In this document: positions 1 to 44,528 of the stretch, one piece after another | Layout: each line of letters starts with the position of its first letter | Position numbering within the stretch: the stretch's first letter is position 1 | From: Escherichia coli | Lineage (GTDB): Bacteria > Pseudomonadota > Gammaproteobacteria > Enterobacterales > Enterobacteriaceae | NCBI RefSeq assembly: GCF_013122565.1 | Contig: NZ_CP053258.1 | DNA: 64,000 bases | Direction: 5' to 3' (one strand) | Made by a program: the position numbers and the translations under genes | Notes under the pieces: generated by a model | What the model saw: only the letters and a program-made list of their open reading frames with translations | Told to the model about the DNA's origin: nothing | Database searches by the model: none

Positions 1-111
1 CGTAAAGGTGAGGAAACGGGCAAAACCTATGCCGTCTGGCTACATGATTTTAACGTTCGCTGGCGCGTCACCGACGCAGGTTTTGAAGTCTTTGCGCTGG
101 AACCGCGTTAA
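1..111 (+). CDS. tsaA: TsaA (YaeB) C-terminal fragment; 5' end outside window
   Basis: Open frame enters from the window edge (...DAGFEVFALEPR, TAA at 109-111) directly upstream of proS as in E. coli; product name rests on synteny. Confidence 0.5.
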   Translation, partial: RKGEETGKTYAVWLHDFNVRWRVTDAGFEVFALEPR

Positions 112-221
112 ATTCACGCCCTTCTCTTTTGACATTTCTTTTGCACTGGTAAACTAAATCACTTTTTTTGTCCCAGGCTCGCCTTGAGCCTGTTCTACCT
201 TCCAACTGGAACCGTAACAAC

Positions 222-1940
222 ATGCGTACTAGCCAATACCTGCTCTCCACTCTCAAGGAGACACCTGCCGACGCCGAGGTGATCAGCCATCAGCTGATGC
301 TGCGCGCCGGGATGATCCGCAAGCTGGCCTCCGGGTTATATACCTGGCTGCCGACCGGCGTGCGCGTTCTGAAAAAAGTCGAAAACATCGTGCGTGAAGA
401 GATGAACAACGCCGGTGCAATCGAGGTGTCGATGCCGGTGGTTCAGCCAGCCGATTTGTGGCAAGAGAGTGGTCGTTGGGAACAGTACGGTCCGGAACTG
501 CTGCGTTTTGTTGACCGTGGCGAGCGTCCGTTCGTACTCGGCCCAACTCATGAAGAAGTTATCACTGACCTGATTCGTAACGAGCTTAGCTCTTACAAAC
601 AGCTGCCGCTGAACTTCTATCAGATCCAGACCAAGTTCCGCGACGAAGTGCGTCCGCGTTTCGGCGTCATGCGTTCCCGCGAATTCCTGATGAAAGATGC
701 TTACTCTTTCCATACTTCTCAGGAATCCCTGCAGGAAACCTACGATGCAATGTATGCGGCCTACAGCAAAATCTTCAGCCGCATGGGGCTGGATTTCCGC
801 GCCGTACAGGCCGACACCGGTTCTATCGGTGGCAGCGCCTCTCACGAATTCCAGGTGCTGGCGCAGAGCGGTGAAGACGATGTGGTCTTCTCCGACACCT
901 CAGACTACGCAGCGAACATTGAACTGGCAGAAGCTATCGCGCCGAAAGAACCGCGCGCTGCTGCTACCCAGGAAATGACGCTGGTTGATACGCCGAACGC
1001 GAAAACCATCGCGGAACTGGTTGAACAGTTCAATCTGCCGATTGAGAAAACGGTTAAGACTCTGCTGGTTAAAGCGGTTGAAGGCAGTAGCTTCCCGCTG
1101 GTTGCGCTGCTGGTGCGCGGTGACCACGAGCTGAACGAAGTTAAAGCAGAAAAACTGCCGCAGGTTGCCAGCCCGCTGACTTTCGCGACCGAAGAAGAAA
1201 TTCGTGCCGTGGTTAAAGCCGGTCCGGGTTCACTGGGTCCGGTAAACATGCCAATTCCGGTGGTGATTGACCGTACCGTTGCGGCGATGAGTGATTTCGC
1301 TGCTGGTGCTAACATCGATGGTAAACACTACTTCGGTATCAACTGGGATCGCGATGTCGCTACCCCGGAAATTGCTGATATCCGCAACGTGGTGGCTGGC
1401 GATCCAAGCCCGGATGGCCAGGGTACGCTGCTGATCAAACGTGGTATCGAAGTTGGTCACATCTTCCAGCTGGGTACCAAGTACTCCGAAGCACTGAAAG
1501 CCTCCGTACAGGGTGAAGATGGCCGTAACCAAATCCTGACGATGGGTTGCTACGGTATCGGGGTAACGCGTGTGGTAGCTGCGGCGATTGAGCAGAACTA
1601 CGACGAACGCGGCATCGTATGGCCTGACGCTATCGCGCCGTTCCAGGTGGCGATTCTGCCGATGAACATGCACAAATCCTTCCGCGTACAAGAGCTTGCT
1701 GAGAAACTGTACAGCGAACTGCGTGCACAAGGTATCGAAGTGCTGCTGGATGACCGAAAAGAACGTCCGGGCGTGATGTTTGCCGATATGGAACTGATCG
1801 GTATTCCGCACACTATTGTGCTGGGCGACCGTAACCTAGACAACGACGATATCGAATATAAATATCGTCGTAACGGCGAGAAACAGTTAATTAAGACTGG
1901 TGACATCGTCGAATATCTGGTGAAACAGATTAAAGGCTGA
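222..1940 (+). CDS. proS: Prolyl-tRNA synthetase
   Basis: 572-aa ORF starting [20 protein letters not shown]; class II aaRS with editing domain; ORF-track start at 168 is an upstream over-extension. Confidence 0.95.
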
Positions 1941-1949
1941 TGCCAGAAA

Positions 1950-1977
1950 GGGTCCTGAATTTCAGGGCCCTTTTTTA
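1950..1977 (+). terminator. Intrinsic terminator after proS
   Basis: GGGTCCTG-aattt-CAGGGCCC stem (one G-U pair) followed by TTTTTT, 10 nt after the proS stop. Confidence 0.7.
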
Positions 1978-1992
1978 CATGGATTGTATAAA

Positions 1993-2817
1993 ATGGATAA
2001 ACCAAAGGCGTACTACCGCCTGCTTCTCCCCAGCTTTCTTTTACTTTCGGCCTGTACCGTTGATATCAGCCAGCCAGACTCCTCTGCCACAGCGGTAGAT
2101 GTCGAGGCAAAAACATGGGCTGTCAAATTCCAGCATCAAAGCTCTTTCACCGAACAATCAATAAAAGAAATAACGGTACCTGATCTCAAACCCGGCGATT
2201 TGCTGTTCTCCTCAAGCCTGGGGGTAACCTCATTTGGGATCCGCGTTTTCAGCACTTCCTCTGTGAGTCACGTTGCAATCTATCTGGGTGAAAATAACGT
2301 TGCAGAAGCGACAGGCGCTGGCGTCCAGATTGTTTCCCTTAAAAAAGCGATGAAGCATAGTGATAAACTTTTCGTCTTACGAGTCCCGGATCTTACCCCG
2401 CAACAAGCCACAGAAATCACCGCGTTCGCCAATAAAATCAAAGATAGCGGTTATAACTATCGCGGCATTGTCGAATTTATTCCCTTTATGGTGACTCGCC
2501 AGATGTGCTCACTGAATCCGTTCTCCGAGGATTTTCGCCAACAGTGCGTCAGCGGCCTGGCGAAAGCGCAGTTAAGCAGTGTGGGCGAAGGAGACAAAAA
2601 GTCGTGGTTTTGTTCGGAATTTGTCACTGATGCATTTGCCAAAGCCGGGCATCCGCTTACGCTGGCGCAATCGGGCTGGATTAGCCCTGCCGATCTGATG
2701 CATATGCGTATTGGTGATGTCTCTGCGTTTAAGCCAGAAACGCAGTTACAGTATATTGGACACCTGAAGCCTGGGATTTATATTAAAGCGAGTCGCTTCG
2801 TTGGGCTGACTCGGTGA
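1993..2817 (+). CDS. yaeF: Putative lipoprotein YaeF (predicted peptidase-like)
   Basis: 274 aa, MDKPKAYYRLLLPSFLLLSAC lipobox-type signal; position between proS and nlpE. Confidence 0.75.
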   Translation: MDKPKAYYRLLLPSFLLLSACTVDISQPDSSATAVDVEAKTWAVKFQHQSSFTEQSIKEITVPDLKPGDLLFSSSLGVTSFGIRVFSTSSVSHVAIYLGENNVAEATGAGVQIVSLKKAMKHSDKLFVLRVPDLTPQQATEITAFANKIKDSGYNYRGIVEFIPFMVTRQMCSLNPFSEDFRQQCVSGLAKAQLSSVGEGDKKSWFCSEFVTDAFAKAGHPLTLAQSGWISPADLMHMRIGDVSAFKPETQLQYIGHLKPGIYIKASRFVGLTR

Positions 2818-2841
2818 TAAAAGCCAGCCTCGTGCACAAAA

Positions 2842-2942
2842 TGCCGGAGGCGGCGTGAACGCCTTATCCGGCCTACAAAATCGTGCTAATTCAAAATGTT
2901 GCATTATATGCTGTAGGCCTGATAAGCGCAGCGCATCAGGCA
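2842..2942. repeat. REP/BIME palindromic elements between yaeF and nlpE
   Basis: Two inverted REP-type units, TGCCGGAGGCGGCGTGAACGCCTTATCCGGCCTAC and GTAGGCCTGATAAGCGCAGCGCATCAGGCA. Confidence 0.8.
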
Positions 2943-2972
2943 ATTTTGCGTTTGTTTCTGCCTTAAGCAGGT

Positions 2973-3683
2973 TTACTGCCCCAAACTACTGCAATCCTTG
3001 TTTGGGTAAAATTTACCTGCCGTATCGGGCGCTAATACTTTGGTTGGCGCACCGGTATCCGGATTAGCCTCAAGCGTAAAGTGACCTTCTACTGACAGTA
3101 ACACCGGTTTTTCACTGTGACCGCGCGCAGCCAGGTAGCCACGCTCCAGCTCTGCGTTATTCGCTACCATGAAACGTTTTCCGGTCGCGCAATCAGTGAA
3201 GGTCGCCGCATCAGCCATATAAAAATACATGCCCCGCAGGGTCATCGGCGTCATGGGTAAACTGGATTGTGCCGGTTCCAGCGTATAGTTGAACTGCGAT
3301 TCAATCGGATTACCTTCACGATCGAGCATCTCCAGCGCATCTCCTTTCGCCCGATAATATGACTTTTCACCTTTGCTGTCGGTTAATACCAACTTGTCAG
3401 CGGTTCGCGCCCATGTACCGTAGGAAGCGAAAGAGGAAGGTTCTTCACGAGCACCGAGATAACGCTCATTCATCACCCATGTTCCGTCTTTTTCGAGGAA
3501 CAGAGAGGTTTCGATTCCTTCGCAATCGGCACACGGCAGCACGCCGCGCCAACTTTGCGGCATCGGTTTCAGTTCGGCAGCCTGCGCCGGAGAAAGCGTA
3601 TCGACTTCGGCCCGATTATTACAACCCATCAGAGTAAAGAGGCTGATTACAGCCATCGCTGTCACTATCGCTTTTTTCACCAT
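2973..3683 (-). CDS. nlpE: Outer-membrane lipoprotein NlpE (CutF), Cpx surface sensor
   Basis: 236 aa, signal plus lipobox LMGC, CxxC motif (PCADCEG); synteny. Confidence 0.9.
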   Translation of the reverse strand: MVKKAIVTAMAVISLFTLMGCNNRAEVDTLSPAQAAELKPMPQSWRGVLPCADCEGIETSLFLEKDGTWVMNERYLGAREEPSSFASYGTWARTADKLVLTDSKGEKSYYRAKGDALEMLDREGNPIESQFNYTLEPAQSSLPMTPMTLRGMYFYMADAATFTDCATGKRFMVANNAELERGYLAARGHSEKPVLLSVEGHFTLEANPDTGAPTKVLAPDTAGKFYPNKDCSSLGQ

Positions 3684-26080: not shown

Positions 26081-26229
26081 GTTACGAATCCTTGAAAACT
26101 TGTCTCAGTCAGACCAGACAGTCACACACAGTGGAAGTGTGCTAAGTATAGCCCTGATTAAACATATTACGGGTAAGATCCCCCGCGATACTTACGCGGA
26201 ATCTTACCCTTATTTATCCATCACGGGAA

Positions 26230-44380: not shown

Positions 44381-44500
<120 letters not shown>

Positions 44501-44528
44501 AGGCGTTCAGGGCCGTTATATGGAAAAA

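Follow-up and report, generated by a model that had tools for sequence, protein, structure and literature searches.

A probable single-copy BIME-1 element between the convergent genes yaeF and nlpE of Escherichia coli and its alleles across the species

Genes and repeat units of the yaeF-nlpE spacer

In the 64,000-nucleotide stretch of E. coli DNA analyzed here (the window), the convergent genes yaeF and nlpE are separated by an extragenic spacer bounded by two stop codons, with that of yaeF ending at 2817 and that of nlpE, on the reverse strand, at 2973–2975. These coordinates leave 155 bp (2818–2972), the length given in the initial annotation. The encoded lipoprotein NlpE activates the Cpx envelope stress response, and arfB and yaeQ come after nlpE in the window. 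RefSeq annotates a yaeF of 825 bp at the corresponding position of PapRG-04-4, a nearly identical strain; in YF-1, 97-3250 and F070, yaeF is annotated as a frameshifted pseudogene. The features of the locus are as follows.

168–1940, + strand: proS, the first gene of the window
1993–2817, + strand: yaeF, a permuted papain-like enzyme, the upstream gene (open reading frame 1984–2817)
2818–2972: yaeF-nlpE intergenic spacer, 155 bp
2842–2876, + strand: Y-type REP (palindromic unit), TGCCGGAGGCGGCGTGAACGCCTTATCCGGCCTAC, 35 nt, 33/35 to the published Y reference
2849, + strand: private T to G change in the Y stem, GCCGGAG in place of GCCGGAT
2877–2912, + strand: probable L-type long linker of BIME-1, 36 nt
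2889–2901, + strand: IHF-consensus-like core, ATTCAAAATGTTG, 12/13 to WATCAANNNNTTR
2913–2941, − strand: Z1-type REP (short Z), GCCTGATGCGCTGCGCTTATCAGGCCTAC, 29 nt, 28/29 to the short Z reference
2913–2923, − strand: natural IS621 target 11-mer, ATCAGGCCTAC, exact match, unoccupied in the window, its CT core being AG at 2915–2916 on the + strand
2973–3683, − strand: nlpE, Cpx-activating lipoprotein, the convergent gene

Comparison with the reference sequences for E. coli REP Y and Z units (PMC11208160) identified the second unit as a short Z, for which the spacer scores 27 against only 19 for the long Z. A REP, or palindromic unit, is an imperfect palindrome 30–40 nt long whose foot carries a conserved GTAG/CTAC tetranucleotide; the two units of the spacer have CCTAC/GTAGG at their ends and form hairpins, and the Z1 unit is inverted relative to Y, so that its GTAG end faces the CTAC end of Y across the linker. 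Inverted-repeat detection found the internal Y palindrome (I2) as well as pairing between the Y and Z1 tails over 15 nt with 93% complementarity. The two inverted REP units that had been proposed to lie between the convergent genes are thus borne out by both reference matches and inverted repeats.

The REP family comprises roughly 600 copies in E. coli. With up to two mismatches allowed, the window holds 6 copies of the REP tail motif CTTATCMGGCCTAC, where 0.41 would be expected; this count was reached in 0 of 100 shuffles, and both exact copies lie inside the yaeF-nlpE spacer. With the spacer sequence as query, a median of 23 matching places is found per E. coli genome. The inverted REP pair is genuine and clearly exceeds chance. 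The window has another REP cluster, of a different type, at 44384–44502. There a Y unit (44384–44418) is separated by 15 nt of linker from an inverted Z2 of the long type (about 44434–44470), after which comes a degenerate partial Y; this cluster is BIME-2-like, not BIME-1.

Alleles in K-12, across E. coli and in related genera

The spacer of K-12 MG1655, between the end of nlpE at 215,979 and the start of yaeF at 216,179, measures 199 bp, so that the figure of about 199 bp given in the initial annotation was exact. Identity of the two spacers had been named there as the outcome that would speak against a strain-variable element, and the alignment shows that they are not identical. Read in the orientation of the window, the K-12 allele consists of a degenerate Y 3′ half, a long Z2 in inverted orientation (35/36), 11 nt of linker, a Y unit (35/35 to the reference) and an L linker, after which just GGCCTG stands in place of the Z1 unit. 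Relative to the window, K-12 has an extra inverted Z2 with the Y remnant on the yaeF side and lacks Z1 on the nlpE side, only Y and L being common to both; it is a chimera of BIME-1 and BIME-2 (an "atypical" BIME) with one Z2-Y pair. The accompanying suggestion that REP copy number may differ fails for this pair of strains, each allele holding two intact REPs, and stands for other alleles, the 29-bp spacer described below having none. The RefSeq annotation of K-12 lists no repeat features across 42 kb and is uninformative on REPs.

Over 29 kb the window is about 98% identical to K-12. Within this comparison, an insertion of about 146 bp in the pyrH-frr spacer of K-12 (window 26176–26180) and another of about 125 bp in its rpsB-tsf spacer (window 28071–28082), the latter with an ERIC/IRU-like core CACTTACTGATGTAAGCTCCCGGGAATTC, are absent from the window, and these are further small-repeat presence/absence polymorphisms.

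A census of 5,426 complete E. coli genomes was made with whole-spacer queries, for which a coverage of at least 80% is only possible for the matching allele. The following classes were obtained.

Window-type Y-L-Z1, 155 bp: 2,021 genomes (37%)
K-12-type, 199 bp: at least 1,918 genomes (35%)
IS621 inserted in the Z1 tail: 694 genomes (13%)
REP-free spacer, 29 bp: 522 genomes (10%)
Hybrid of 173 bp with inverted Z2, L and Z1 but no Y (e.g., ATCC 8739): 127 genomes (2%)

Together the five classes account for at least 5,282 of the 5,426 genomes (97%), which confirms the expectation that the spacer varies between strains; among the matches listed, 144 genomes (2.7%) lie outside all five classes. 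Presence/absence of BIME-1 among isolates has a published precedent from 1997 (PMC1187871), and BIME strain variation of this kind has been known since the 1990s. The 29-bp spacer consists of one perfect hairpin with a 12-bp stem, TGAAAGCCGGAGAATGCTCCGGCTTTCAA, of −21.3 kcal/mol. Identity within the window-type class ranges from about 90 to 99.5%, while nearly all K-12-type spacers are at least 99% identical, and the wider range suggests that the window-type allele is the older of the two.

Across 2600–3200, identity of at least 99% to the window was found in only 1 of the 5,426 genomes, that of PapRG-04-4 (baboon stool, Gambia), the next best reaching about 97%. Since PapRG-04-4 is alone at this level and the window is about 98% identical to K-12, the window comes from a sparsely sampled E. 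coli lineage. The PapRG-04-4 spacer differs from that of the window by a single base, the T to G change at 2849 in the window, a position that is T in every other allele aligned.

A scan of species-representative genomes with one degenerate DNA pattern returned 50 loci, with E. fergusonii, E. marmotae and E. ruysiae lying outside the loci recovered by this pattern. The distribution of yaeF is patchy: besides E. coli, the gene occurs in E. whittamii, in Escherichia sp. E1V33 and in a few members of Citrobacter and Klebsiella. E. albertii, Salmonella and most Citrobacter, Kluyvera and Trabulsiella have no yaeF, and their nlpE lies directly next to proS. E. albertii and Salmonella are therefore uninformative on the ancestral allele. 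Citrobacter species with yaeF have a spacer of 47–78 bp containing a simple terminator hairpin and no REP, and in K. oxytoca and K. michiganensis there is zero spacer between the two genes. E. whittamii (about 94% flank identity) and Escherichia sp. E1V33 (about 96%) both carry, at the same site, a Y-L-Z1 element with decayed Y units, and the 155-bp spacer length is common to the window, PapRG-04-4, E2348/69 and these two genomes. The occurrence of the element in both E. whittamii and E1V33 indicates that the BIME-1 at this locus is old and predates the diversification of E. coli.

The REP-free 29-bp allele also occurs in E69 (CP089930.1), which is labelled E. coli. Over proS-yaeF-nlpE-arfB its identity to the window is about 94.5%, a divergence equal to that of E. 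whittamii, and judging by this distance it is probably a cryptic-clade Escherichia carrying an E. coli label. With the 29-bp allele in E69 and BIME-1 in E. whittamii, the outgroups would fit a change from REP-free to BIME-1 as well as the reverse. The 155-bp and 29-bp alleles have about 10 nt in common on the left (TRAAAGCCRG) and unrelated right ends, which rules out a clean insertion with the 29-bp allele as its empty site; the filled and empty alleles are related by replacement of about 143 nt against about 20 nt.

Assignment to BIME-1 and competing explanations

BIME-1 elements, also known as RIP or RIB, were reportedly described by Gilson, Bachellier and Hofnung, and by Boccard and Prentki in 1993. 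A BIME-1 consists of one Y and one Z1 unit with a long conserved L linker, often contains an IHF site and occurs as a single copy; a BIME-2 consists of tandem Y/Z2 units with short linkers, and atypical BIMEs are chimeras (PMC3333891; PMC1187871). We equate the long Z unit with Z2 and the short one with Z1 because the definition of naRNA4, which comes from REP325, is Y-l-Z2 (PMC4550694) and its consensus in Rfam displays a long Z hairpin. The short Z of the window is therefore Z1, and the arrangement Y-L-Z1 is that of a canonical BIME-1.

The spacer contains exactly one Y and one inverted Z1, with just these two REPs in 155 bp and no tandem repetition. Its linker aligns with the Rfam ES036 consensus and with the linkers of the yiiX-metJ and K-12 yaeF-nlpE spacers, the core GTGCnAATTCAAnAnnTTG being common to the window and the latter two. 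The score against ES036 (RF02751), whose consensus is essentially the L motif plus a REP tail, is 30.1 bits (E = 3e-4) with a gathering score of 37.6, which denotes similarity without formal membership. The sequence ATTCAAAATGTTG is the only IHF-like core in the spacer and is positioned as in the linker family consensus; by analogy with established BIME-1 linkers, IHF probably binds there. The yiiX-metJ BIME-1 of K-12 has the same Y-L-Z1 layout, with inverted units, a linker of about 35 nt containing GTGCnAATTCAAnAnnTTG and an IHF-like site. Nothing essential distinguishes the window copy from such elements; its own features are the private Y stem mutation at 2849 and a linker whose 3′ third departs from the consensus of Rfam and yiiX-metJ. 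BIME-2 clusters such as REP325 (the gyrase-binding source of naRNA4) belong to the same REP family and contain the Y unit also found in the window, but they are built of tandem Y/Z2 pairs with short linkers of the S, s, l or r type, whereas the window spacer has a long L linker and neither a Z2 (long Z) nor tandem Y/Z2 pairs. We therefore consider it very probable that the spacer holds one canonical single-copy BIME-1 with an IHF-type linker, situated at the shared 3′ end of two convergent units.

The proteins YaeF and YiiX carry the same annotation, permuted papain-like enzyme, and the genes of both adjoin a Y-L-Z1 BIME-1. As the element is downstream of yaeF but 5′ of yiiX, this is probably a coincidence.

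In folding predictions, the Y hairpin has −18.5 kcal/mol and the Z1 hairpin about −13 on either strand, with z-scores of about −3; without the T to G change at 2849, the Y hairpin would reach −21.3 kcal/mol. Compared with shuffled sequences, the entire spacer folds better on the + strand (z −3.3) and only marginally better on the − strand (z −2.0). The full-length fold does not contain two separate REP hairpins; in the minimum-energy structure of the + strand (2855–2929), the Y 3′ half pairs with the GTAG end of Z1 in one long hairpin around the L linker. A cruciform or a long hairpin spanning the entire BIME-1 is thus a predicted alternative structure, and given this pairing of the two tails, the RNA may not form two separate hairpins in vivo. 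No Rho-independent terminator (GC-rich stem plus T-run) was found on either strand in 2600–3200, and no promoter-like site within the spacer, the one site found (2757–2784) lying inside yaeF. Apart from the REP hairpins, no strong structure is predicted at the 3′ end of either convergent transcript.

The established properties of the BIME family (PMC3333891, PMC2817692) suggest what the element may do at this position. The yaeF transcript would run into the BIME-1 element and the nlpE transcript would enter it from the opposite side, and both probably end in or traverse the REP hairpins, which probably act as barriers to 3′ exonucleases and/or as termination aids. At the DNA level, the REPs may serve as substrates for RAYT, IS621 and homologous recombination, which would generate variation between strains. 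A literature search for yaeF, nlpE and IHF together found no paper on the locus, and the remarks on mRNA stability and recombination in the initial annotation are established literature, not something shown by the sequence itself.

Could the spacer instead be a small RNA gene, ES036/CssrF-like or naRNA4/CssrE-like, with a function of its own and only secondary similarity to REPs? Both families match in Rfam, naRNA4 (RF02564) with 37.2 bits (E = 2.5e-5) and ES036 with the score given above, and transcription has been reported for about 80% of REP elements (PMC4550694). However, both scores fall below their gathering thresholds (59.5 and 37.6, respectively), and the naRNA4 alignment is made up of the Y hairpin and a fortuitous second stem in the 3′ end of yaeF, while naRNA4 needs Y-l-Z2 and the spacer has no Z2. 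The spacer also lacks a promoter-like site, and the region is missing altogether from the 522 genomes with the 29-bp allele and interrupted by IS621 in 694 others. The two sub-threshold matches reflect the REP and L motifs and are no evidence of an sRNA gene, and we regard this explanation as very unlikely.

We give still less credence to a currently mobile, non-autonomous transposon, that is, a RAYT-mobilised BIME that arrived recently at the site. It has been proposed that RAYT/TnpA-REP mobilises BIMEs as non-autonomous elements (PMC2817692, PMC3333891), and the presence/absence polymorphism within E. coli would fit recent movement. The same-position 155-bp element in E. whittamii and E1V33 is, however, older than the diversification of E. 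coli, the spread of window-type alleles over about 90–99.5% identity likewise points to an old element, and filled and empty alleles differ by a replacement and not by a clean insertion with recognisable ends. Lastly, that the spacer is a mere bidirectional intrinsic terminator with locus-specific palindromes outside any repeat family, as its place between convergent genes and the single strong hairpin of the REP-free allele and the Citrobacter spacers (a hairpin being the default solution at this position) might suggest, is already refuted as an exclusive explanation by the 33/35 and 28/29 matches to genome-wide Y and Z1 references, the recurrence of the sequence at a median of 23 places per genome and the lack of a stem plus T-run, and its remaining probability is very low. 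Compared with such simple terminator hairpins, which occupy the same position and presumably have the same role, the BIME-1 of the window is a composite of dispersed repeats without the T-run signature.

IS621 and exchange between BIME-1 loci

IS621 is a member of the IS110 family with a bridge-RNA-guided recombinase. Its natural target in REPs, with a CT core, has been published (PMC11208160), and the target at this locus lies in the Z1 tail, where it is empty in the window and occupied in the 694 genomes counted above. In the occupied alleles the junction reads GTAG–IS621–AGGCCTGATAAG, precisely at the published target and with the core dinucleotide on both sides. The three IS621-bearing alleles inspected have three different L linkers, an otherwise conserved Y and an identical IS621 junction.

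In YF-1, the segment of the yaeF-nlpE spacer comprising the Y tail, the L linker and the IS621 junction is identical in 91 of 91 positions to the IS621-occupied yiiX-metJ BIME-1 of M8, and the same linker is found, without IS621, at yiiX-metJ in K-12. Over 1,378 bp, YF-1 and M8 differ by only 2 mismatches, one within the Y unit and one within the Z1 unit. To judge from the alignment, this match looks like an ectopic conversion tract with its ends inside the REPs, and it suggests exchange between loci. Together, the IS621 insertions and the linker common to two loci lend direct support to the description of such elements as recombination hotspots. A more general proposal, that IS621 copies in REPs act as portable homology and so promote gene conversion from one BIME-1 locus to another, is speculative and on balance unlikely; if it did hold generally, an element with a bridge-RNA recombinase would reshape the 3′ regions of unrelated genes, including the Cpx sensor gene nlpE, species-wide. 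Equally speculative is that selection on the expression of nlpE or yaeF could lie behind the long persistence of both REP-free and BIME-1 alleles.

The element and its polymorphism are of an ordinary, already known kind; our results matter little beyond annotation and leave the knowledge of REPs and BIMEs unchanged. The locus is a clean and well-populated example of known BIME-1 presence/absence and rearrangement and of REPs as targets of IS621, and its spacer is a handy marker for strain typing. The natural allelic series, in which the spacer holds zero, two or two different REPs with or without IS621, would be usable for studying the effects of REP hairpins and IHF sites on nlpE 3′ ends and expression.
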